40,920 nt of DNA. It comes from Candidatus Andersenbacteria bacterium RIFCSPHIGHO2_12_FULL_45_11b (lineage in GTDB: Bacteria > Patescibacteriota > Andersenbacteria > UBA10190). Location of the stretch: assembly GCA_001817115.1 (NCBI GenBank), contig MHHS01000051.1, positions 1 to 40,920 on the forward strand. Direction: 5' to 3'. Position 1 is the stretch's first letter. Every line of letters starts with the position of its first letter. This document shows positions 5,753 to 17,029 of this stretch, in pieces. The position numbers were made by a program, and so were the translations under genes. The notes beneath the pieces were generated by a model. It was not told where the DNA came from. It was given only the letters and a program-made list of their open reading frames with translations, and made no database searches.

Positions 5753-6511
5753 TTATATTCCAGACTTTTTATAAAGTTCTGAAATATTCGTAAATTCCTT
5801 TTTCTGCTCGATTTCTTCTGTAACGATGTCCCCATTTCGATTATATACTTTATATGCTTTCGCATGAGGTTTTGAAGTAATGACGCGATATGTATTGCCC
5901 ACAAATTCGATAGCGCACCCATCATCAACCCCTATACCAAATCCGCCTATTTTTCGAATCATGTCTTCAAAGTTTTTTCTTCGTTTCACTCCGAGCGTTT
6001 CACTGTCAAAGTGTGGGCAATGGATACCTTTTAAAAACCCCAAGCCAGTAACATTTGTATATATCCATTTTTCATCATCATAAAAAGACATTGAATCGCT
6101 ATGCCCAGATTCATACCAGCATATAGACCCCGCGCTTAAACCGCTTAAAATAATTCCTCGTTCCCATGCTTTTTTCAAAACCTTGTCCACTCCAAGTAAT
6201 CGCCAACGCTTCATCATCTTGAGCGTATTACCTCCGCCCACATATATAATGTCAGTATTAAGAATTTTGCTTTCTATCTCTGCCCTAGATAGCTTCCCGT
6301 TAGCAAGCAATAAAACGTCTGTCTTACAACCAAGCTGTTTGCCAAAATATTTTTGTATACCTTCCCAATATCCTTGCGCATCACCACTCGCAGTGGGAAT
6401 AAACAACAATTTCGGATGCTTTTTGCCAGAAAGTCGAATAATCTCCTTATCAATGACAAGAGTTTCTTTTTCGTCAATTTCCCCTCCGCCGATTGTTACT
6501 ATTTTCTTCAT
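5753..6511 (-). CDS. Peptidase E / S51-family (class I glutamine-amidotransferase-like) peptidase
   Basis: IVTIGGG, LFIPTAS, YVGGGNT, GLSAGSIC (nucleophile Ser), CPHFD, GVDDG. Start reassigned to ATG 6511. Confidence 0.88.
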   Translation of the reverse strand: MKKIVTIGGGEIDEKETLVIDKEIIRLSGKKHPKLLFIPTASGDAQGYWEGIQKYFGKQLGCKTDVLLLANGKLSRAEIESKILNTDIIYVGGGNTLKMMKRWRLLGVDKVLKKAWERGIILSGLSAGSICWYESGHSDSMSFYDDEKWIYTNVTGLGFLKGIHCPHFDSETLGVKRRKNFEDMIRKIGGFGIGVDDGCAIEFVGNTYRVITSKPHAKAYKVYNRNGDIVTEEIEQKKEFTNISELYKKSGI

Positions 6512-6578
6512 GCGATAATCGTAATTGAGTTTTGTAGCTTCGTCGAATATGGGTAGAACTTCAAAAATAGCAAAAGAA

Positions 6579-7031
6579 TTACATTGAGAGCACATCCCCA
6601 TGCCTCTTTCCCGGCACCACTACAAGCTTTGCGTGCAGCTTTCGTGCAATGATCTCCGCAGTCTTCTTCATAGCGGGAATTTCAAACTCCCCAACGTAAA
6701 CCGTAACCGCACAAGTAACTGTGGGGATAGGCCCTATCTCCTTGTATCGCTTCTTTCCAATGAGCCGAAGAAAGCTTTTTCCAGCCAGTTGTACTGTTTC
6801 TGTAAAAATTGGCGAAGGAGAGTATAGGTGAAGCTCTTTCGGAGGGTTCTTTTCCGCCACTATCAAAGCTATCGCTGCGCCAATAGAGTGCCCGGTTACA
6901 ATATCTTTGCTTGTAAGGTGAACCTTGTCGCACCAGTCTTGTATCGTATTATGTTTCCACGTCAAATTAACCGAAATGACTCTCTTCGGTAATTTATATT
7001 CTTTCGTATCTAATGCAATGAATAGTTTCAT
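6579..7031 (-). CDS. Minimal alpha/beta-hydrolase-fold protein
   Basis: GHSIG nucleophile elbow, LYSPSP, VYVGEFE, C-terminal VPGKRH. Confidence 0.7.
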   Translation of the reverse strand: MKLFIALDTKEYKLPKRVISVNLTWKHNTIQDWCDKVHLTSKDIVTGHSIGAAIALIVAEKNPPKELHLYSPSPIFTETVQLAGKSFLRLIGKKRYKEIGPIPTVTCAVTVYVGEFEIPAMKKTAEIIARKLHAKLVVVPGKRHGDVLSM

Positions 7032-7837: not shown

Positions 7838-8953
7838 ATGAAAAAGGAAATTATGTCGCCAGAACGTTTGGCAGCCTCGTTGGCAATTCTAGACCTGACG
7901 GATCCCAAAAATGGGATTCACGCTATCAACATTGTCGCCAGTAATGTAGTTCGTGCATTGGAGAAAACTTATCGGGGAGTGATTGTTGAAGAGGTGCGTT
8001 CTGTCCCTGAAGTCTCCGTAAAAGAGAACTTCGACGATCTTCTCTTCCCCACAGACAACGCTGGACGATCTTCTCGTTACACGAGGTATGTTACGGAGGA
8101 CACAGTTTTGCGAACTCATACCTCAGCGGTAATTCCGAGATGGCTTGAAAAAGTATCTCGGGATAATGCTAGCGATCGGATTGTTGTCCTGCCGGGAATG
8201 TGTTATCGCCGTGATGTTGTGGATAAAACTCATTGTGGCGAGCCACACCAGATGGACGTTTGGCGAATCAAACGCGGTAATCCCCATTTTGCCAGGACAG
8301 ACATGCTTCACTTGATAGAAACTATCTTGGGATCGGTGGTTCCAGGATATAAATACCAAGCAAATGAAGTCGTACATCCTTACACTATGAACGGTCTTGA
8401 AGTGTACGTCTCGGTAAAAGGGTCATGGCTTGAGGTTCTTGAATGCGGTGAAGTTCATCCGACAGTTCTCAAGAATGCGAATCTTGATCCTAACGAATAC
8501 TCAGGGCTTGCTCTGGGAATGGGTCTTGATCGGCTAGTGATGATCACTAAAGATATTGACGATATTCGTGTTTTGAGATCAGAAGATCCTCGAATAAGGC
8601 GCCAAATGGCAGATCTTAAAAAGTTCGTCCCTGTCTCAAACCAACCGGCAACCAAAAGGGTCCTCTCATATTCGACTTCCGTCGAAAAAACGGAGGAAGA
8701 CATTTGCGAGGAAATTCGCGACGAGCTAGGTCCAGATACTATCTTCATAGAGAGAATCGAGTACTCCGAAATTTTCTATGAACAGCTTCCGGAAAAGGCC
8801 AGATCAAACCTCGGCATTAGCCCAGACCAGAAAAATGTTGTGGCAACACTGACATTCCGATCATTAGAAGGCTCAATGCCAAAAACGATGGTCAATGAGT
8901 GGATGCAGCGTCTCTACCCGAGACTAAATAAGGGAAATCGGGGATACATGTAG
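7838..8953 (+). CDS. PheRS-alpha-related class II ligase with a C-terminal FDX-ACB-like domain (single-chain, mitochondrial-type architecture)
   Basis: ENFDDLLFP, VLRTHTSA, CYRRDVVDKTH..PHQMD (motif 2), WLEVLECG, GMGLDRL (motif 3), C-terminal TFRSLEGSM...VNEW. Confidence 0.82.
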   Translation: MKKEIMSPERLAASLAILDLTDPKNGIHAINIVASNVVRALEKTYRGVIVEEVRSVPEVSVKENFDDLLFPTDNAGRSSRYTRYVTEDTVLRTHTSAVIPRWLEKVSRDNASDRIVVLPGMCYRRDVVDKTHCGEPHQMDVWRIKRGNPHFARTDMLHLIETILGSVVPGYKYQANEVVHPYTMNGLEVYVSVKGSWLEVLECGEVHPTVLKNANLDPNEYSGLALGMGLDRLVMITKDIDDIRVLRSEDPRIRRQMADLKKFVPVSNQPATKRVLSYSTSVEKTEEDICEEIRDELGPDTIFIERIEYSEIFYEQLPEKARSNLGISPDQKNVVATLTFRSLEGSMPKTMVNEWMQRLYPRLNKGNRGYM

Positions 8954-8976: not shown

Positions 8977-9007
8977 AGGCCACAGACATCTGTCTGTGGC
9001 CTATTTT
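8977..9007 (+). terminator. Terminator of the PheRS-like gene
   Basis: AGGCCACAGACA-TC-TGTCTGTGGCCT then ATTTT. Confidence 0.75.
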
Positions 9008-9064: not shown

Positions 9065-10513
9065 TTAAAAAACCGGGAACAACTCGACATCTCTCGTATC
9101 CTGTGTGTTTAACAGAAGCATTAAAAGATGCTCCATTCCTACTGCGATACCTCTGCACGGAGGCAGTCCAAACTTTAATGCATTAATGATATCCTCATTT
9201 ACGCCGTTTGACTGACCTACTCTGCGATATTCCATCTGCTCTTCCATCCTCCGTCTAAGAATCTCGGGATCACGCTCTGGATTAACAATTGTAACAGTAG
9301 GTCTACCATTGATAATCAAGAGAGTCTCATCAACAGTTGATCCACCTTCATTGATCTTGTAAAGCGGTGATTGAGCAGCCGGTAGATTTCTTAGAAAAGC
9401 AGGCCCAGTAATATGAGACATCACGTGCGTATACAAGGCTGTTGCTATTGTATACTTATTCTCCCTTATGGGACGAACAATTTCTGCTTTATCTAAAATG
9501 TGCAAAAGCTCTTGGACAGGACATGCTTCGTCATATCTTAAACCCGTACACTTTTCGATCTCTGCCATAAAATCATAAACCATCCAGTTTCCTGAACAAT
9601 CTATCTCTCCCTTTGGAGTAAGAATTGACGTTGAACCGCTTAACTGCATCAGCACGTCGCAAATCATGTCATGCGCCAAATCCTCCATTTCATCACTCGT
9701 CGCATATGCATGATACAATTCAAGAATAGTAAATTGTGGAAGTTTGCTAGCTGTGGAATCCTGGTTCCGAAATGATTTACCGATCTCAAATACCTTTGAG
9801 AACCCGGCAATCATCAACTTCCATAGGAATAGCTCGGACGTTAACCTCAGATATATGTCCCGATTACGTCCAGCTGCCCGTGTCACGAACGGATCAGCTA
9901 AACCTGCCTCAAAAGACTCTTGAAGCAAGGTCATATTTAATTCCTCATACCCTTTCTTGTAGAGAAATTGCCTGATCGCACGAAACACTGTCGAACATTT
10001 TCGGAAATGCGAGATTTTTTTCTGGTCCCGAATCAGCTGGAGATGTCTATGAGCATACAAGTTTGATCTCTTTCGAAAATCAATATTGCTATCGTATACA
10101 TCACTCGTCGCCTTTGACAGCAACGTGATCTTTTCTCCAAGAAAAACATCTTCGCTTGCGATCCTAAGCCTTATACCATCCAACATTACTATATCTCCAT
10201 ACTGCACAAGGGAATTTATCGTTTCAATGTTATCCAGCGTACGTATTAAAAACGCAGGAATAGATACCCCATTTCCCTCTATTTTTTCAAGGATAATGAC
10301 GTTTCTTCCTTCCATGGTGTCAAAGACACCAAGTCTAGATATTTTCCCAGTATTGTCAGAAAGCATAAGCCTTCCAACAAGAGTGGTCTTTTCTTCATAG
10401 GGCACGTTTTTCAAGGCGCAGACCTCGATAGCCCCCCTTGGCACCTCACGACGATTGGTAAGAGGATCGTTTTCGAGAGCAAAAACTCTCTTTCCTCCAT
10501 TTTTTTTCTGCAT
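9065..10513 (-). CDS. Degenerate class II lysyl-tRNA-synthetase paralogue (OB-fold plus catalytic domain)
   Basis: YAHRHLQLI, ADPFVT, YLRLTSELFLWKL, VFEIGKSFRNQ, PQFTILELY, GLPPCRGIAVGMEHL, RDVELFP; SD TAAGGAGG. Confidence 0.85.
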   Translation of the reverse strand: MQKKNGGKRVFALENDPLTNRREVPRGAIEVCALKNVPYEEKTTLVGRLMLSDNTGKISRLGVFDTMEGRNVIILEKIEGNGVSIPAFLIRTLDNIETINSLVQYGDIVMLDGIRLRIASEDVFLGEKITLLSKATSDVYDSNIDFRKRSNLYAHRHLQLIRDQKKISHFRKCSTVFRAIRQFLYKKGYEELNMTLLQESFEAGLADPFVTRAAGRNRDIYLRLTSELFLWKLMIAGFSKVFEIGKSFRNQDSTASKLPQFTILELYHAYATSDEMEDLAHDMICDVLMQLSGSTSILTPKGEIDCSGNWMVYDFMAEIEKCTGLRYDEACPVQELLHILDKAEIVRPIRENKYTIATALYTHVMSHITGPAFLRNLPAAQSPLYKINEGGSTVDETLLIINGRPTVTIVNPERDPEILRRRMEEQMEYRRVGQSNGVNEDIINALKFGLPPCRGIAVGMEHLLMLLLNTQDTRDVELFPVF

Positions 10514-10597: not shown

Positions 10598-11554
10598 TTA
10601 TTTTATATGGGTTGTCAAATCAGCCGCAATGACAACATTTGAATTATTGGCTTCAATAGTAAGTTGCCCGCCAATAGGAAAAATCATATTTTCAACCGCA
10701 TGACCAAGTTCCCCTACCTCAATAACCGGAAAATTATATTTTTTCCCATATTCTAAAATGATATCGCTCACATTACGGTTATTCTCAAGAATTTCTTCCT
10801 TGCACATAAAAAAGTGACCGATAATAATTCCATTACAATATTTCTTAAAATTTGGTTGTTGAAATATTTGTGCAATATATGATTCAATGCGGGAAAAAGA
10901 CTCGCCAATAGATTCAATTATGAAGATAAACGGTTTAGAAACTGCGCGGATAGGATCACTGTCAGTGCCTAATAAGAGACAAAAGGAAGGTAAACAACCA
11001 CCCAGGCACACTCCAGTAGCTTTACCTGGCTTAATGACCTTCCACTGTAGATAATCAGGGTGATGCCGATAATTAATATAATTAGTAAAAAGAAAATCTT
11101 TTAAATGATTAACAGTGTATTCAGTTGCATTTTTACCAAGTCCCCAAATAACATCAATACCGTGATATGAAGTTTCACCCGTGTGAGCATATATAGCATT
11201 CAGCAATACGGTGATATCACTAACTCCAAATAATTTTTTAGGGTTTTGTTTAATAATGTTCCAATCTATGTCAGACAATAATTCATTTGAATTATCTCCA
11301 CCCTGTGTACAAAAAATTGCTTTAACCTTTGAATCTTTATATGCTTCTTCAATATCTGATATTCTTTCCGCAGCCGTGCCAGATTTATAGTACTCTTTTC
11401 CGCTGGCGTATTGACCATACTGCACCTTCAAGCCCATGTCATTAAGAATATCTACACCTCGGTTATAAAGTGCCATTGCTTCAGGATTATCCTTAATGGT
11501 AGCAGATGGTGAAATCACTGCTATAGTATCGCCTCTTTTCAATGTTTGATTCAT
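10598..11554 (-). CDS. S66-family serine peptidase (LD-carboxypeptidase / MccF-like)
   Basis: LKRGDTIAVISPS, CTQGG, GVSDIT (Ser), IESIGE (Glu), LGH (His); ATGA overlap with the upstream gene. Confidence 0.88.
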   Translation of the reverse strand: MNQTLKRGDTIAVISPSATIKDNPEAMALYNRGVDILNDMGLKVQYGQYASGKEYYKSGTAAERISDIEEAYKDSKVKAIFCTQGGDNSNELLSDIDWNIIKQNPKKLFGVSDITVLLNAIYAHTGETSYHGIDVIWGLGKNATEYTVNHLKDFLFTNYINYRHHPDYLQWKVIKPGKATGVCLGGCLPSFCLLLGTDSDPIRAVSKPFIFIIESIGESFSRIESYIAQIFQQPNFKKYCNGIIIGHFFMCKEEILENNRNVSDIILEYGKKYNFPVIEVGELGHAVENMIFPIGGQLTIEANNSNVVIAADLTTHIK

Positions 11555-13227
11555 AGTCTTTTTATTAAGTAATTATTCAGAACTAAATAATCAATGTTAG
11601 ATTTTATAAATATTTTTATCGCATCTTTAGGCGTTTCAACCATTGGTTCTCCTTTGATATTAAAAGACGTGTTAATTAATATTGGGGTCTCTGATATTTT
11701 AGCAAATTCCTTTAAAAGAACATATAGCCGTGAATTTTGATTCTTAGATAAAACCTGCAACCTCGATGTATTATCGACATGAACGGCTGCCGGTATTTTT
11801 TTTGTTATTCTTTTATTTAATGGAGTGTAAGCAAAAAGCATATAAGGTAACGAGTCGGCAACCACTTTCGGAGGACAATAAAAATAGTCACTTAGGTCAT
11901 CAATGGTCATCATGGGAGCAACTGGACGAAAAGATTCTCGGCTTTTTATTTTATTCAAACGAACACGAGTGCTCATTTTTAACGGACTAGCAAGGATACT
12001 ACGATGTCCAAGTGCTCTTGGGCCAAACTCTGACGCTCCTTGAAACCAAGCTACCACATTATCATCAGCTAATAACTTAGCAATTTTGGGGGGGATCTTG
12101 TTATATCTAAGTTTTTCAAAATTAATATATTTTCGGTATTTATTAATAGCTTGTGTAAGAACTTTATCATTATATTTATATCCAAGATACACAGGCGGCA
12201 CACCCGATGAAATCTTTTTTTGGTTTCCATTGATTTGGTAATGTCCATAAAGAGCCGCTCCGATTGATACTCCGTTATCTCCAGGTGCACTAGGTATGTA
12301 AACACGCTTAAAACCAGACTTCTCTAAGATTTTAGTGTTGGCAATAGCATTTAAAGCCACTCCACCTGCGTAACATAAGTTTCTATGGCCTGTGACTTCT
12401 TTTATTCTTCGGGCATAAAATAGAACGACATTATTTATTATCTTTTGTACAGAAGAAGCGACGTCTGCAATATTTTTCTGTCCTGTGTCCCTATTAACTG
12501 TTTTTGCGATACAACGATAAAGACCGATGTTATCAATTTGATAGTATGTATCTTTTTTAACGCAATACTTTGAGAATTTTTTTACATACCGAGGTTTTCC
12601 ATAAGATGCAATCCCCATTAATTTACCTTCTCCGAAAGGTCCAAAACCACACAAAGAAGCAGTATTTTGATACAAGACACCCACAGAATTACTAAGAGCA
12701 ATAATCGTATTAGTGGAATGATTTATTTGACCAGTAACTTTTTCTAATAAATGTAGACTACCTCCGTGGGCAGAATATAGTGATACTGTCTCGAAACTGT
12801 CATCAAAATAATCACCCGCCCCATCTATCACAAGCACCGCCGCTTCAGTATAGGGTGATGTGTAGAAAGCATGAGCAGCATGTGCTAGATGATGATTTAT
12901 ATTTATATAATTATCCACAGGGACATTGGTCCCAGTTAGGTTTGATCCAACTATCATGCTTACTTGTTCCTCAATATGTTTATTGCCCTGTTTAAAATAT
13001 TTATAAAATCTATTGATTTTCTTTCGGAGAGAATCGATGGAGGGGTTAAGAAAATTAGAATCAAAGTATTTTGCTTCAGATTTTAAATTATATTGGCTAT
13101 TATCGTACTTTATACAGTGGCGAACATGGCTCAACCTCTCCTCTTCTATGGCGATAGAAACCTTACCATTTTCAACGATTGCAGCCGAACTATCATGAGG
13201 AGATAAACTTAATCCTAGAATAGTCAT
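11551..13227 (-). CDS. Carbamoyltransferase, NodU/CmcH/TobZ family
   Basis: HDSSAA, EEERLS, HHLAHA, DGAGD, EGKLMG, GGVALN, GDNG, EFGPRALGHRSILA, RESFRPVAP, HVDNTSRLQ, NTSFN. Confidence 0.95.
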   Translation of the reverse strand: MTILGLSLSPHDSSAAIVENGKVSIAIEEERLSHVRHCIKYDNSQYNLKSEAKYFDSNFLNPSIDSLRKKINRFYKYFKQGNKHIEEQVSMIVGSNLTGTNVPVDNYININHHLAHAAHAFYTSPYTEAAVLVIDGAGDYFDDSFETVSLYSAHGGSLHLLEKVTGQINHSTNTIIALSNSVGVLYQNTASLCGFGPFGEGKLMGIASYGKPRYVKKFSKYCVKKDTYYQIDNIGLYRCIAKTVNRDTGQKNIADVASSVQKIINNVVLFYARRIKEVTGHRNLCYAGGVALNAIANTKILEKSGFKRVYIPSAPGDNGVSIGAALYGHYQINGNQKKISSGVPPVYLGYKYNDKVLTQAINKYRKYINFEKLRYNKIPPKIAKLLADDNVVAWFQGASEFGPRALGHRSILASPLKMSTRVRLNKIKSRESFRPVAPMMTIDDLSDYFYCPPKVVADSLPYMLFAYTPLNKRITKKIPAAVHVDNTSRLQVLSKNQNSRLYVLLKEFAKISETPILINTSFNIKGEPMVETPKDAIKIFIKSNIDYLVLNNYLIKRL

Positions 13228-13237
13228 AATAAAAAAA

Positions 13238-14101
13238 TCATTGATAAATATCAGGTCTCCTGTTTTTTATAATATTGAGGGCATTTAGATTTAATACTCT
13301 CTCTTCAATAAGAGAAGCTACTAAATCAACCTCTATGGTTAATTCTCCCAGTTTATCATCAATTTGCCCGAGTATTTTACCACTGGGTGCAATAATTTTA
13401 CTAGAACCGAGAAACTCCAAGGATTTGTTCTGGTTGACCCCGACTTGATTAGAAACAACCACTAAACACTGATTTTCCACAGCTCTAACTTGATCATAAA
13501 TATCAAAAATATTTTTACTCTGATCATTTATTTTCTGATCGTTATTTTGGTGAACATCAGTATATGCCCAGGCAGATATTATTATAATAATCTCGGCCCC
13601 TTTAAGGGCTAGAGTTTTGGCTGCCTCTGAAAAACATTTATCATAACAAATTAAAACACCAATTTTCCCCACGGGTGTCTGGAAAACCTCTAAAGAATTT
13701 CCGGGAAACAAAAAATAAGGCTCATTAGTTGCTAAATGAGTTTTTCTATAAACGTAATGAGTTTTATCTGGCAAAATAATGTAAGCACTATCAAACATTT
13801 GGCCGTAACCTAAGCTGTCGTCTCTCTCAATAGCTCCCAGAACGATAACCTGGTTATTTTTAGCCGCTATTGCTTTGATCTCCTGTAGAAATCGAATAGA
13901 TGTCGTATTAGTTAAATTAATGGCTGATTCAAGATAATATTTGATAGATTCTTGCTCTAAAAAAGGCATGTATCCCTGCACACAGGCTTCTGGAAATACT
14001 ACTAAATCGCTTTTGGCGTGCTTTAGTAGTATTTTCTTTATTGATCCGATATTATCTTCGGAGTTTAAAGTGGCTTTAAAATTGACAGTGGTAATTTTCA
14101 T
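13238..14101 (-). CDS. Nitrilase / carbon-nitrogen hydrolase family protein
   Basis: Catalytic triad motifs VFPE, YRKTHL, LICYD; RAVENQ; RRPDIY C-terminus. Confidence 0.92.
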   Translation of the reverse strand: MKITTVNFKATLNSEDNIGSIKKILLKHAKSDLVVFPEACVQGYMPFLEQESIKYYLESAINLTNTTSIRFLQEIKAIAAKNNQVIVLGAIERDDSLGYGQMFDSAYIILPDKTHYVYRKTHLATNEPYFLFPGNSLEVFQTPVGKIGVLICYDKCFSEAAKTLALKGAEIIIIISAWAYTDVHQNNDQKINDQSKNIFDIYDQVRAVENQCLVVVSNQVGVNQNKSLEFLGSSKIIAPSGKILGQIDDKLGELTIEVDLVASLIEERVLNLNALNIIKNRRPDIYQ

Positions 14102-14104
14102 ATA

Positions 14105-14911
14105 TTATTGGTCAAACAAAGAGATTTGCTCCTTGATCGGTCTTTTGCGACTAATAATAACCCCATAAGAAAGATACTTATGATTCTTATTAAATAAGGT
14201 CATAGTCTTGTTAAGTCTCCTATAGATGGCTGACTCTATTTCCGAAGAATATTTTTTTTCTTGTGCTATCGTTCGACAATATAACTTAACATCATTTTTA
14301 CTAACAAGCTTGACTTTATCCGTGAAAGTATAATACTTCTCTAAACCACAGATCTTATATAAATTCATCCAGTACTCTAAGCCCCATGGTTCAATACTAA
14401 TCTCCAAGAGATTATTTAGATTATTCAACAGAGATACTGGCGGTTTTTTATGATAAAAGAAATTAATATCAATAACAAACCCCCAGGGTTTTACCACTCT
14501 GGCGTATTCGCTTATGGCCTTTTTCTTATTTTTAATAAATGCTGTTGAGCCACCAGAAAAAGCGACATCAAAGGACTCATCCTTAAAGGGTATCTCCATA
14601 CCATCGGCCACCAAAAAATTCACAAGATGGCCTAATGGATCTTTTGACTGATAAAGCTTTGCGGCCTCAACCATATTTGGGCTGATATCTATGCCCGTGA
14701 CATCTGCCTTCGCAAGATGGGCGATTTCAAAAGTACAATAACCAGTATTACAGCCTATGTCCAAAACTTTTGATTTGTGATTTATAAAACTGTTTTGTAT
14801 AGATTGTCTGACTGAAATTTGACCACCAGGGGGCCGATTTACCTCATTCAAAAGGGCCATAAACTCAACATATGGCATATTCTCAATTTGTTGTGCGCTA
14901 AGTTTATGCAT
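14105..14911 (-). CDS. Class I SAM-dependent methyltransferase-fold protein
   Basis: RPPGG, VLDIGCNTG, GIDISPNMV, IPFKDESFD, RVVKPWG. Confidence 0.9.
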   Translation of the reverse strand: MHKLSAQQIENMPYVEFMALLNEVNRPPGGQISVRQSIQNSFINHKSKVLDIGCNTGYCTFEIAHLAKADVTGIDISPNMVEAAKLYQSKDPLGHLVNFLVADGMEIPFKDESFDVAFSGGSTAFIKNKKKAISEYARVVKPWGFVIDINFFYHKKPPVSLLNNLNNLLEISIEPWGLEYWMNLYKICGLEKYYTFTDKVKLVSKNDVKLYCRTIAQEKKYSSEIESAIYRRLNKTMTLFNKNHKYLSYGVIISRKRPIKEQISLFDQ

Positions 14912-14926
14912 AATAATATATAAGAA

Positions 14927-15298
14927 CTATCTAAAAATTTCCTTTTTATCTACTGATAAAGGTATAAAATATTCACAAATTTCAGAAAACAGTTTTCTGC
15001 AAGTTTCCTCATTATTTTGTGAATAATTACACAAAAAAACATCTAACGTTATATATTGCAATTCCGGCCAGGTATGTACTGAAATATGTGATTCCATCAA
15101 ACAAACGACACCAGTGAACCCCTCCGTCTTTCCAAATTTATGGTAATAAGATCCTAGTTCTCGGAGTTTATGTTTCTTAATGAGACTACTTAAAAAAAGT
15201 TTAAATGCCTTTTTTGACCCAGCTTTGATAAGAGACCCTGTTTGGATTTGGCCTAAAATGTGTAGACCGGTAATAACTTTTTTATTCTTGTTACTCAT
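14927..15298 (-). CDS. speD: S-adenosylmethionine decarboxylase proenzyme (pyruvoyl, class 1B)
   Basis: GFTGVVCLMESHISVHTWPE (E-S self-cleavage site), DVFLC. Confidence 0.88.
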   Translation of the reverse strand: MSNKNKKVITGLHILGQIQTGSLIKAGSKKAFKLFLSSLIKKHKLRELGSYYHKFGKTEGFTGVVCLMESHISVHTWPELQYITLDVFLCNYSQNNEETCRKLFSEICEYFIPLSVDKKEIFR

Positions 15299-15322
15299 TG
15301 CAGTTATTTTAATTTTATCTTA

Positions 15323-16375
15323 CTATGGATATGTTCTAATATTTTTTAACCGCGGATATAAGATTGCGTCACGTATATTATTTTGGCCAAGGATCCAAGT
15401 AATAAACCTCTCTATTCCTAAACCAAAACCAGACGTACCGCTATAATTTGCAAGGTCTCTAAGATGTATATACCACTCATAAGAATCGGTGGAAATATTT
15501 TGACGAAACAGCGACTCAAGTATTTCTTTTTTATTATCTTGTCTTTGACCACACCCAATAATTTCGCCACCAAAGGCTCCCTCAAATAAAGGAGGAAATA
15601 TTAGATCGGCATTAAGCACCTTTTCAGAATCCTTTGGATCTGGCTTTTGATAAAAAGGAACCCTATCACGGTCATAACCGTATATCCAAAAAGGAGTTTT
15701 ATATCTGAGCAACTGACTTAAAATAATCTCACTATTTGATTTTAGATCACGACCATGTTTAGTGTAATTTACAAGTCGCCCGAATCCATTTTCCTCCAAT
15801 AGTCCAACAGCTTCATCAAAAGTTATGCGAGGAAATTTTTGCGCCTTTAACACAGCCTCAATTGAGGTTCTAGTCGCTTTATCGTCTAAAGCTAATTTTT
15901 CAACAATATCAGGCAAATCTTTTATTGTTTTTACTAAAATTTTAATGTACTTCTCAACTAAAGGAATCAGATCATCAATTTGACCTCTTATTTCAGCTTC
16001 ACAATGGTAAAACTGATTAAGATGTTTCTCATCTGGATTCTCCCCGCGCATTGATGGTAAATAACAATAGACTTTATCGAAGCCATTCATTAGTACTGGT
16101 TCAAGACCAAATTGTGCTGAATCTACAAGAAAAGTTTTAAGATCGCCAAATTTAATCGATATAGCTTCAGAATCTGAGCTAGGTCCCATAGGAGAAGAAA
16201 TGCTAGGCGTGATCATAAATAAGTCAACATTATAGGCCCCCTGTGTTTCTGACCAATATTTATCAGTTGCAATTTTAATATAATGCCTCAATTTGGTTAA
16301 TTCTCTAAAATATTGAGAATCTGCGACTCTTAAATAATGTGTTCTTGGATTATACTTTGGAATATTAAGTTTCAT
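15323..16375 (-). CDS. Asn/Asp-tRNA-synthetase-like class II ligase, catalytic domain only (no anticodon-binding OB-fold)
   Basis: FLVDSAQFGLE, PSMRGENPDEKHLNQFYHCEAE (motif 2), PFYQK, GEIIGCGQR, YEWYIHLR, GFGLGIERF (motif 3); 350 aa. Confidence 0.88.
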   Translation of the reverse strand: MKLNIPKYNPRTHYLRVADSQYFRELTKLRHYIKIATDKYWSETQGAYNVDLFMITPSISSPMGPSSDSEAISIKFGDLKTFLVDSAQFGLEPVLMNGFDKVYCYLPSMRGENPDEKHLNQFYHCEAEIRGQIDDLIPLVEKYIKILVKTIKDLPDIVEKLALDDKATRTSIEAVLKAQKFPRITFDEAVGLLEENGFGRLVNYTKHGRDLKSNSEIILSQLLRYKTPFWIYGYDRDRVPFYQKPDPKDSEKVLNADLIFPPLFEGAFGGEIIGCGQRQDNKKEILESLFRQNISTDSYEWYIHLRDLANYSGTSGFGLGIERFITWILGQNNIRDAILYPRLKNIRTYP

Positions 16376-16468
16376 AGCAGTTATAAAGTATTTTATTTAA
16401 AGTATACTAACTAAATGATGATTTGTACTGGGAAAGGTTAATTTAATTATACTTTTGATAACAAACGC

Positions 16469-16497
16469 ATTATACAAATCTTTACATAATAAGTCAA
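16469..16497 (-). promoter_or_regulatory. Near-consensus sigma70 promoter for the six-gene operon; its -35 overlaps the IS200 right end
   Basis: TTGACT (16497-16492)-17 nt-TATAAT (16474-16469). Confidence 0.75.
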
Positions 16498-17029
16498 TCT
16501 CCACGGGCTTACGCCCGTGGCATGTATGTTAGAACGCAAGCATAGCTTGTCCTGAATCCTCTTTGCCCTGCATCTTGATATACCTTCGTATGATGTCTTC
16601 ATTCACCCCTACGGTAGAGACAAAGTACCCATCTGACCAGAAGCCTCCACCCCAGTATATCTGTTTGATGAAGGGGCATTTTTCGCGTATGGCGCGGCTG
16701 GTATTTGTTTTAATGATGCGTACGGCAGTTCCTGGTGCCATTTTTGGGGGAATGGAAATGAGGAGGTGGAGGTGATCTACGTCATGGTTAATCTCCTTAA
16801 ACTCGATTTCGGAGTAGTGCTTCCTAATCTCTTGCAACTTCAGCGCCATAAACGCAAAAATTCCTTCGTTAATGACCTTACGGCGGTACTTGGGTGTCAG
16901 GACTACGTGGTATTCACACAAATACACTGCGTGGGCTTGTTTCCGGTATCTCATGTCTCCATGATACTAGAGGATTCAGGAATCCACTCCTTCCCTCGGG
17001 CTTACGCCCGGGGCATGAAATTAGGTGGA
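16493..17029 (-). mobile_element. IS200-type insertion sequence (IS200/IS605 family, tnpA only), about 537 bp
   Basis: Subterminal hairpins sharing CGGGCTTACGCCCG at 16501-16520 and 16994-17013, each preceded on the minus strand by CATG; TTGAC at both predicted cleavage sites (17034-17030, 16497-16493). Confidence 0.9.
16529..16954 (-). CDS. tnpA: IS200/IS605 Y1 (HUH) transposase
   Basis: YHVVLTPKYRR, DHLHLL (HUH), FWSDGYFVSTVG, IRRYIKMQ (catalytic Tyr). Confidence 0.97.
   Translation of the reverse strand: MRYRKQAHAVYLCEYHVVLTPKYRRKVINEGIFAFMALKLQEIRKHYSEIEFKEINHDVDHLHLLISIPPKMAPGTAVRIIKTNTSRAIREKCPFIKQIYWGGGFWSDGYFVSTVGVNEDIIRRYIKMQGKEDSGQAMLAF

Follow-up and report, generated by a model that had tools for sequence, protein, structure and literature searches.

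We have analyzed a stretch of DNA which corresponds to positions 1-40,920 of the Andersenbacteria contig MHHS01000051.1. This whole stretch, 40,920 nt long, will be called the window, and the genome from which it comes is labelled G000. The window contains an operon of six genes at 10598-16375, all of them on the minus strand, which code for a ligase of the AgnA family, a SpeD-like decarboxylase, a transferase of the MccD family, a CN-hydrolase, a carbamoyltransferase and an S66 peptidase of the MccF type. Agrocin 84 is an antibiotic which imitates an activated amino acid: It is a mimic of leucyl-adenylate. Judging from sequence comparisons, we consider it moderately probable that the operon represents, in Patescibacteria, a widespread and still uncharacterised family of clusters similar to that of agrocin 84, and that it works by the mechanism proposed below. 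The product would most likely be a decorated aminoacyl-adenylate mimic which inhibits an aminoacyl-tRNA synthetase (aaRS), possibly LysRS. The core of the family, formed by the ligase, the MccD-type transferase and the S66 peptidase, is compact and portable. It occurs in some hundred genomes at the species level, the majority of them from Patescibacteria, and in several cultivable bacteria.

The operon and its six proteins

The six open reading frames (ORFs) are separated by gaps of 24, 15, 3, 10 and -4 nt, in gene order. Upstream there is a putative sigma-70-like promoter (TTGACT-17-TATAAT, 16469-16497, minus strand), which matches 11 of 12 consensus positions and is the top-scoring site of this kind in the 8.2 kb scanned; promoter-like sites as a whole are not enriched (38, against 30 ± 6 in shuffled sequences). 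The operon has a GC content of 0.347, against 0.429 in the remainder of the window. All six proteins exceed the Pfam cut-offs, and alignments show intact catalytic motifs in the ligase, the SpeD-like protein, the CN-hydrolase and the S66 peptidase. A preliminary description of the window had pointed out the close packing of co-oriented genes, the near-consensus promoter, the high AT content and the intact motifs, and our results agree with it on these points. It had also proposed a pathway with no peptide precursor. This is consistent with what we find: The 93 nt leader of the operon contains no ATG, hence no MccA-like ORF, other short ORFs not having been searched systematically, and a search for ThiF/MccB (PF00899) gives no matches in the source genome, which is 94% complete, while the control search was positive in 12 of 14 reference genomes.

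The first gene (15323-16375, minus strand) codes for a ligase of 350 amino acids, recognized by Pfam, by NCBIfam and by a BLASTP comparison with AgnA (32% identity over 340 amino acids, E 3e-47). According to Pfam and to the alignment it only contains the tRNA-synt_2 core, residues 80-343, with no OB domain. It covers only positions 125-446 of the 451 in the AsnRS model and scores 176 bits for a cut-off of 414. The lack of an anticodon domain, already suggested, is therefore borne out. Residues R110, E112, F122, E271 and R323, which belong to class II motifs 2 and 3, are invariant in 23 members of the family. An SxSSPMGxxSDS insertion and a DSxQF motif are family-specific; they are common to this ligase and AgnA, and separate both from AsnRS. 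A FastTree analysis of 40 sequences places the AgnA-like ligases and those of the Candidate Phyla Radiation (CPR) in one clade, sister to AsnRS, with a support of 0.93.

A specificity for Asp or Asn had been proposed for the ligase, but this does not follow, since AgnA serves a cluster which makes a leucyl-adenylate mimic, and several substrate-pocket positions which are constant in the 8 AsnRS compared are invariantly different in the ligase family. The solved archaeal asparagine synthetases A (3p8t, 1nnh) give 39-41 bits with the ligase, against 138 bits for the AsnRS of P. horikoshii, and the best NCBIfam model for this enzyme gives 131.9 bits for a cut-off of 389. The name asparagine synthetase A, which AgnA-like ligases receive at NCBI, is probably misleading. 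The ligase was found in none of the 7 genomes of the same genus and none of the 20 of the same family which were searched. Of 400 other genomes sampled in the phylum, 5 contain clear orthologues (53-59% identity); 5 further matches (G152, G041, G051, G100, G259), in short frames of 333-354 amino acids, have 30-35% identity.

The third gene (14105-14911, minus strand) codes for a class I S-adenosylmethionine (SAM)-dependent transferase of 268 amino acids, which matches Methyltransf_11/25. Its best match in the PDB is MccD (5fcd), aligned end to end with 105 bits, while the next methyltransferase only reaches 56 bits. The profile of its family aligns with MccD over residues 8-266 of 267 (120.7 bits). 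It is 29% identical over its full length to the methyltransferase in the E. coli mcc operon (E 2e-36) and 30.5% identical to AgnB1 over 99% of the query (E 2e-37, tblastn against plasmids). By these comparisons it is a true MccD-family protein, as had been suggested. A second methyltransferase family in related loci (MTb) does not match MccD, and its match with AgnC3 is only generic.

Between the ligase and the transferase lies the gene for a SpeD-like decarboxylase of 123 amino acids (14927-15298, minus strand), of the pyruvoyl type found in the S-adenosylmethionine decarboxylase (AdoMetDC) family. It meets the PF02675 cut-off with 72.4 bits and remains under that of TIGR03330 (71.6 bits for a cut-off of 75.65); the ES-H self-cleavage site is intact. 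Its substrate could be SAM or a carboxy-aminopropyl adduct. Genes of this kind are found beside the MccD-like gene in 8 other loci (L055, L056, L064, L082, L120, L121, L153, L157; numbers with an L designate loci related to the operon), while LysA-like decarboxylases which depend on pyridoxal phosphate (PLP) occupy this place in three (L051, L087, L108). The presence of two unrelated decarboxylase families beside the MccD-like gene fits a route to an aminopropyl group by transfer and decarboxylation. This is the order of events that a review gives for MccD and MccE1 (PMC8323819). The earlier idea of a polyamine conjugate is not supported, as a search of the source genome revealed no spermidine synthase. 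The window has a second gene of the AdoMetDC family (19634-20035, minus strand, TIGR03330 43.7 bits) which adjoins PyrB. The latter, at 20103-21092 on the plus strand, was a candidate ornithine carbamoyltransferase and turned out to be an aspartate carbamoyltransferase.

The last gene (10598-11554, minus strand) codes for an S66 serine peptidase of 318 amino acids with the Peptidase_S66 and S66C domains. The serine in GxSD and the histidine in GH align with those of MccF-like structures. MccF-type structures give 89-126 bits and LdcA structures 50-75 bits, which agrees with the MccF-like character proposed for this protein. Identity is 27% with E. coli MccF (E 1e-30) and 24% with AgnC5 (E 1e-27, full length). 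No other S66 gene was found in the source genome. The peptidase is more widespread than the cluster: It appears in 65 of 401 sampled CPR genomes, and it is found as a stand-alone gene in three genomes of the same genus.

The two remaining genes code for a CN-hydrolase of 287 amino acids (13238-14101, minus strand) and a carbamoyltransferase of the TobZ/NodU/GdmN type with 558 amino acids (11551-13227, minus strand). The hydrolase matches CN_hydrolase, and its E-K-C triad (E38, K120, C152) is invariant in 14 homologues. The family is small, with 15 homologues at E <= 1e-40 in 5.8 billion proteins. The carbamoyltransferase has both expected domains, Carbam_trans_N (PF02543, Kae1-like, 128 bits) and Carbam_trans_C (PF16861, YrdC-like, 206 bits), and gives 180-230 bits with GdmN, NovN and TobZ. 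A precedent for carbamoylation is MccY, a homologue described in some mcc-like clusters (PMC8323819).

Related clusters in other genomes

Relatives of the ligase were collected by a pattern scan of species-representative genomes. It found 106, and the analysis continued with the best 80 loci. The preliminary description considered such a cluster unexpected in a reduced, CPR-like genome; with this number of relatives, the family is in fact common there. Neighbouring genes were counted with our own ORF calling and single-linkage BLAST clustering, after dropping two loci (L099, L106) in which the ligase gene is split or short. The synteny tally includes the 50 loci in which 4 ORFs or more flank the ligase on both sides, and counts neighbours within 4 ORFs. 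The S66 gene of the window is 5 ORFs away from the ligase, and thus lies outside this range.

An S66 gene is found near the ligase in 45 of the 50 loci, most of them from Patescibacteria. As to methyltransferases, 30 loci have the MccD-like one of the window type and 15 have a different one of class I; a second aaRS-like gene is present in 39. Peptidase, methyltransferase and second aaRS-like gene are found together in 32 loci. This second gene is variable: It resembles the AlaRS core in 21 loci, belongs to a family which we call c3 in 15, and in 4 it is a class IIb aaRS of full length. Also recurrent among the neighbours is a class IIa aaRS core which has an HGTP anticodon domain. The c3 proteins, about 385 amino acids long, have no sequence match in Pfam, NCBIfam or PDB, and accompany the ligase in 27 of 79 loci (for example, L111 13856-15049). 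Their predicted fold has a mean pLDDT (predicted local distance difference test) of 86, and Foldseek relates it to HisRS and HisZ (E about 1e-13, template modelling score 0.53-0.58). A possible relationship between c3 and the AlaRS-like family was also considered; hhalign only finds a 38-column motif with a probability of 15%, and no claim is made. Another neighbour, c5, was taken for an exporter and is a histidine kinase.

In L094, a single ORF of 692 amino acids (11841-13919, minus strand) fuses an AlaRS-like protein with the S66 peptidase, which hints that both act together. Related loci also contain accessory genes: HD, NUDIX, RpiB, kinase-like, ATP-grasp, SDR and radical SAM. Their recurrence would fit a tailoring of nucleotides or sugars. 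The recurring genes also include APH/CotS-like kinases, present in some clusters (L053 7827-8849, L035 11199-12101). The ligase is also present in metagenome-assembled genomes from Calothrix (L061) and Desulfobacteraceae (L099). In plasmid2 of a cultivated cyanobacterium, Calothrix parasitica NIES-267 (L075, 6937-11047) the order is methyltransferase, AlaRS-like, S66 and then ligase, which we call type B; the flanks of this cluster contain nothing decisive.

The CN-hydrolase and the carbamoyltransferase were found in none of the 80 genome loci. The closest metagenomic relatives, L120 and L121 (75% and 71% identity), have the order ligase, SpeD, methyltransferase, CN-hydrolase, and the contig then ends. 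In 11 cases the size of the longest contig is identical between homologues of these proteins (ligase, carbamoyltransferase, CN-hydrolase), for example 12778 and 37237 for all three; among the CN-hydrolase homologues listed, 4 have such a size in common with a ligase homologue and 6 with a carbamoyltransferase homologue. These shared sizes are a circumstantial sign that the six-gene subtype recurs. The genes for SpeD, CN-hydrolase and carbamoyltransferase thus appear to define a small recurring subtype. The conserved co-occurrence of all six families, which the preliminary description proposed as a check, holds for the ligase, the methyltransferase and the S66 peptidase, which are syntenic in many genomes. 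The complete set appears to be limited to a small subclade.

The LysRS-like gene and other neighbours of the operon

A gene for a divergent, full-length LysRS paralogue of 482 amino acids (9065-10513, minus strand) starts 84 nt past the S66 gene, and the gap contains no terminator-like site. The sole site of this kind on that side is a GC-rich hairpin at 8977-9002, downstream of the LysRS-like gene and listed on the plus strand. It lies between this gene and a convergent one, and is a candidate terminator for both. The LysRS-like gene is thus probably the seventh gene of the unit. Its protein gives 235 bits with the LysRS model, for a cut-off of 468, and keeps 56 of 107 columns which are invariant in true LysRS, a figure similar to that of related paralogues (55-63). 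These paralogues cluster together, beside true LysRS. They follow the S66 gene in L040, L057 and L098, and are found nearby in L107, L122, L124 and L160. Among 31 genomes of the same family, a second match to the LysRS-like gene is present only in the source genome.

The genomes of L040 and L057 also contain a true LysRS next to the cluster (G411:C3:50041-51441 and G412:C8:50252-51655). It is a second copy which exceeds the model cut-off, and each genome has another LysRS, also above this cut-off, elsewhere. This arrangement mirrors that of AgnB2, the immunity LeuRS of the agrocin 84 cluster, and suggests that LysRS is targeted in this subclade.

The convergent gene (7838-8953, plus strand) codes for SrmL, a 'PheS-related mystery ligase' of 371 amino acids (NF051887, 401 bits for a cut-off of 300). 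This cut-off is exceeded in one of the 31 genomes of the family, which is the source genome itself, and in one of 401 from the phylum. SrmL is not counted as a conserved member, because no homologue is found in the 80 genome loci or in 43 metagenome loci, and its membership in the unit is uncertain. According to hhalign it is not related to the c3 or AlaRS-like families. SrmL-like matches with 209-270 bits in 24 other CPR genomes were discarded: They are probably the PheS of each genome, and 5 of the 6 we inspected adjoin a conserved protein of 640-720 amino acids.

Further away there is an accessory gene for an S51 peptidase (5753-6601, minus strand, PF03575), with weak scores against the cyanophycinase and PepE models; it is found in none of 9 genomes of the same genus. 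MccG, an S51 protein, is described as a microcin C immunity enzyme (PMC9239234). The window protein is a possible second immunity hydrolase, and its membership in the unit is uncertain. The accessory region as a whole has about 11 kb, with three aaRS paralogues and two peptidase families.

On the other side, an IS200/IS605 transposase (16529-16954, minus strand; Pfam, NCBIfam) is found immediately upstream of the operon. The GC-rich subterminal hairpin of this element is at 16501-16520, and the element is the border of the low-GC block. A contig from a separate sequencing run spans 15274-17424, which confirms the sequence and the junction. Contig depth is approximately doubled in the 16022-16522 bin, and loose ends gather at 16491 and 16523 in three runs; together with the hairpin, this suggests a repeated element. 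Joints at 16515-16520, with sides of 22-25 letters, probably represent further copies of this hairpin repeat. No matches were detected when the window was scanned for tRNA genes and Rfam families.

The source genome has 884 kb in 51 contigs, and its phylum-mates are labelled as Patescibacteria. It contains one AspRS (743 bits), one LysRS (596 bits) and GatB. AsnRS is absent: Asn-tRNA is made through GatB.

Proposed pathway, alternatives and known systems

The analysis establishes homology and synteny, and from these we infer what the product may be, on which substrate the ligase acts, which enzyme is targeted and what the CN-hydrolase, the carbamoyltransferase, the LysRS-like protein, SrmL and the S51 peptidase do. 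The pathway would start with the AgnA-type ligase, which would activate a carboxylate with ATP and form a stable mimic of an aminoacyl-adenylate, joined by an N-acyl phosphoramidate or a similar amide. The MccD-like enzyme would then transfer the 3-amino-3-carboxypropyl group from SAM to the phosphate. This group would become aminopropyl through the SpeD-like decarboxylase, which would replace the PLP-dependent MccE1 and act either beforehand, by making decarboxylated SAM, or afterwards, on the adduct. The carbamoyltransferase and the CN-hydrolase may attach and trim a decoration of the carbamoyl or amide kind, peculiar to this subtype. The S66 peptidase would protect the producer by cutting the acyl-nucleotide amide bond. 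Finally, the second aaRS-derived protein (AlaRS-, HisRS-, class IIa- or, here, LysRS-like) probably sets or reflects the targeted aaRS; our best guess for the target in this subclade is LysRS. The accompanying aaRS paralogue might thus serve as a modular predictor of the target.

A more general proposal, which we offer tentatively and regard as rather doubtful, is that Patescibacteria widely carry minimal antibiotic factories derived from aaRS paralogues, each with an AgnA-family enzyme as a general synthase of stable mimics of aminoacyl-adenylates, an interchangeable aaRS-derived targeting protein and MccF-type protection, and that, as ultrasmall episymbionts, they use the products against hosts or competitors. 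The window would then code for an aminopropylated and carbamoylated lysyl-adenylate mimic, made with neither a precursor peptide nor MccB. Judging from the literature we have searched, the operon would represent a type of antibiotic cluster not yet described for CPR bacteria, and little is known about how these interact with their hosts.

Several observations weigh against an agrocin-like cluster. The LysRS-like protein of the window has lost the motif 3 Arg, replaced by His, and has Gln in place of the motif 2 Glu, so that it probably does not function as a resistant LysRS. The source genome has no spare copy of true LysRS. Both the LysRS-like gene (0.42) and the SrmL gene (0.46) have a higher GC content than the six-gene block (0.35). 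The scan of ORFs at 5-22 kb revealed no gene for an exporter. An identity of 29-30% would also allow the methyltransferase to be an ordinary methylase, and the S66 peptidase, which occurs alone in 59 sampled CPR genomes, cannot serve as a diagnostic gene on its own. No counterpart of the AgnC0/AgnC1 pair was detected: AgnC1 has no match in 81 loci and no profile match with c3. Besides, the reaction of AgnA is itself only a proposal, and the agrocin 84 pathway is described as unknown (PMC8323819, PMC4392301).

The lack of an exporter among the ORFs scanned and of a resistant aaRS in the source genome would also suit a non-toxic metabolite, nucleotide-linked or derived from an amino acid, such as a signal, a cofactor-like compound or a building block of the envelope. 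The general nucleotide and sugar enzymes of related loci (HD, NUDIX, RpiB, kinase-like, ATP-grasp, radical SAM) fit this idea, and the S66 protein would then be a processing or recycling peptidase, like the S66 enzymes which recycle murein peptides (LdcA reaches 75 bits). We consider this unlikely: The only characterised clusters with all three core families, those of the agn type, make aaRS inhibitors, mcc holds two of these families, and the extra full-length LeuRS, AlaRS or LysRS beside several relatives is a hallmark of self-resistance. The same trio argues against a resistance or detoxification island, where the S66 and S51 peptidases would destroy incoming aminoacyl-nucleotide antibiotics and the aaRS paralogues would be decoys or spares. 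Such an island would account for two peptidases within 11 kb, for the stand-alone S66 genes in the genus and for a degenerate LysRS-like protein, which could bind the inhibitor; MccF and MccG are described as microcin C immunity enzymes, mostly stand-alone (PMC8323819, PMC9239234). Nevertheless, the ligase lacks an anticodon domain and cannot substitute for an aaRS, the MccD/AgnB1-type transferase, the decarboxylase and the carbamoyltransferase are biosynthetic in every described case, and the predicted co-transcription of ligase, methyltransferase and S66 peptidase matches the agn producer cluster. An island of this kind appears distinctly improbable.

Ordinary metabolism is far less probable still. 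The operon would then combine an archaeal-type asparagine synthetase A and polyamine genes (for SpeD, an aminopropyl transferase and N-carbamoylputrescine amidase), clustered by chance with a murein LD-carboxypeptidase. The names given by NCBI to AgnA-like proteins go in this direction, as do the sub-threshold NCBIfam matches with asparagine synthetase A (132 bits), N-carbamoylputrescine amidase (102 bits) and LdcA (77.5 bits), but these scores are far under the curated cut-offs (389, 410 and 378). The ligase is much closer to AsnRS than to the archaeal enzymes, it was not found in the genomes of the same genus and family which were searched, and the methyltransferase is of the MccD type, not of the spermidine synthase type. 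A housekeeping role is also weakened by a genome which has GatB without AsnRS, in which no spermidine synthase was found and whose sole S66 gene is in the operon.

The agrocin-like reading is favoured by the comparison with described systems. The preliminary description took microcin C for comparison. The agn cluster is closer, since the ligase, methyltransferase and S66 trio is shared with pAgK84. It did not recognise the combination as a described cluster. The trio AgnA, AgnB1 and AgnC5 is already on record for this plasmid, while SpeD, the CN-hydrolase and the carbamoyltransferase have no counterpart in agn. AgnA is described as a truncated AsnRS homologue with no anticodon domain, and has been proposed, without proof, to join an amino-acid-like moiety to AMP via a phosphoramide bond (PMC8323819, PMC4392301). 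Both clusters thus have an anticodon-less ligase derived from AsnRS, a SAM enzyme of the MccD family, an MccF-like S66 peptidase and an aaRS-derived gene downstream. This last gene codes for a working LeuRS (AgnB2) in agn and for a degenerate LysRS paralogue in the window. The gene for AgnB1 lies between agnA and agnB2, next to the former, while in the window SpeD separates the methyltransferase from the ligase. The window lacks AgnC0/AgnC1, the AgnC2-C7 proteins other than the AgnC5-like S66, AgnD-F, the pentanamide and sugar tailoring genes and the AgnG pump, and the operon contains no transporter. NUDIX, SDR, radical SAM and further methyltransferase genes, present in agn, recur in related CPR loci. 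Unlike the host of pAgK84, the host of the window has a genome of only about 0.88 Mb.

The mcc system shares with the window an MccD homologue (29%, full length), an MccF homologue (27%) and the logic of alkylating a phosphate and then decarboxylating. In E. coli mcc plasmids, tblastn finds full-length matches to the methyltransferase of the window, and these plasmids also carry ThiF, MFS, GNAT and S66. On the other hand, the window has no MccA ORF in the leader and its genome has no ThiF/MccB, neither the MFS pump nor the GNAT protein MccE2 is seen among the ORFs scanned, and its decarboxylase is of the pyruvoyl type instead of the PLP-dependent MccE1. The archaeal asparagine synthetase A (3p8t, 1nnh) resembles the ligase in having a core derived from AsnRS/AspRS with no anticodon domain, but its similarity is limited to 39-41 bits and its gene context is entirely different. 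In the literature searched we found no paper linking MccF or MccD with CPR, or an AsnRS paralogue with microcin C; SrmL is not named, AgnA appears only in two reviews, and Table S1 and Figs. 6 and 9 in PMC8323819 may list overlapping clusters.

Similar clusters, for which the literature searched contains no characterisation, are found in cultivable bacteria. A plasmid of Peribacillus psychrosaccharolyticus carries AlaRS and an AlaRS-related gene, followed by methyltransferase, AgnA-like ligase and S66, with an MFS transporter. A plasmid of Exiguobacterium sp. Helios has an AlaRS-related gene, methyltransferase and AgnA-like ligase, with AlaRS further along and no S66 listed in the stretch retrieved. 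In a plasmid of Xenorhabdus bovienii CS03 the order is AgnA-like ligase, methyltransferase and S66, and then LeuRS, an aaRS-related protein and an MFS transporter. In a plasmid of Streptomyces sp. NBC_01707 an aaRS-related protein and a methyltransferase are followed by a class IIa-type protein and S66. These clusters differ from the window in their MFS pumps and full-length AlaRS or LeuRS, and none has the trio of SpeD, CN-hydrolase and carbamoyltransferase. They also include a truncated protein related to aaRS, which is a homologue of either the AlaRS-like or the class IIa-like CPR family. The proteins of these loci (L182 in Exiguobacterium, L186 in Peribacillus, L187 in Xenorhabdus, L188 in Streptomyces) are 26-40% identical to the CPR families: 34-38% for the AgnA-like ligase, 36-40% for the MccD-like methyltransferase and 30-35% for S66. 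The presence of the trio in cultivable bacteria would provide a tractable route to the chemistry of AgnA, that is, to non-hydrolysable aminoacyl-adenylates made without MccB.

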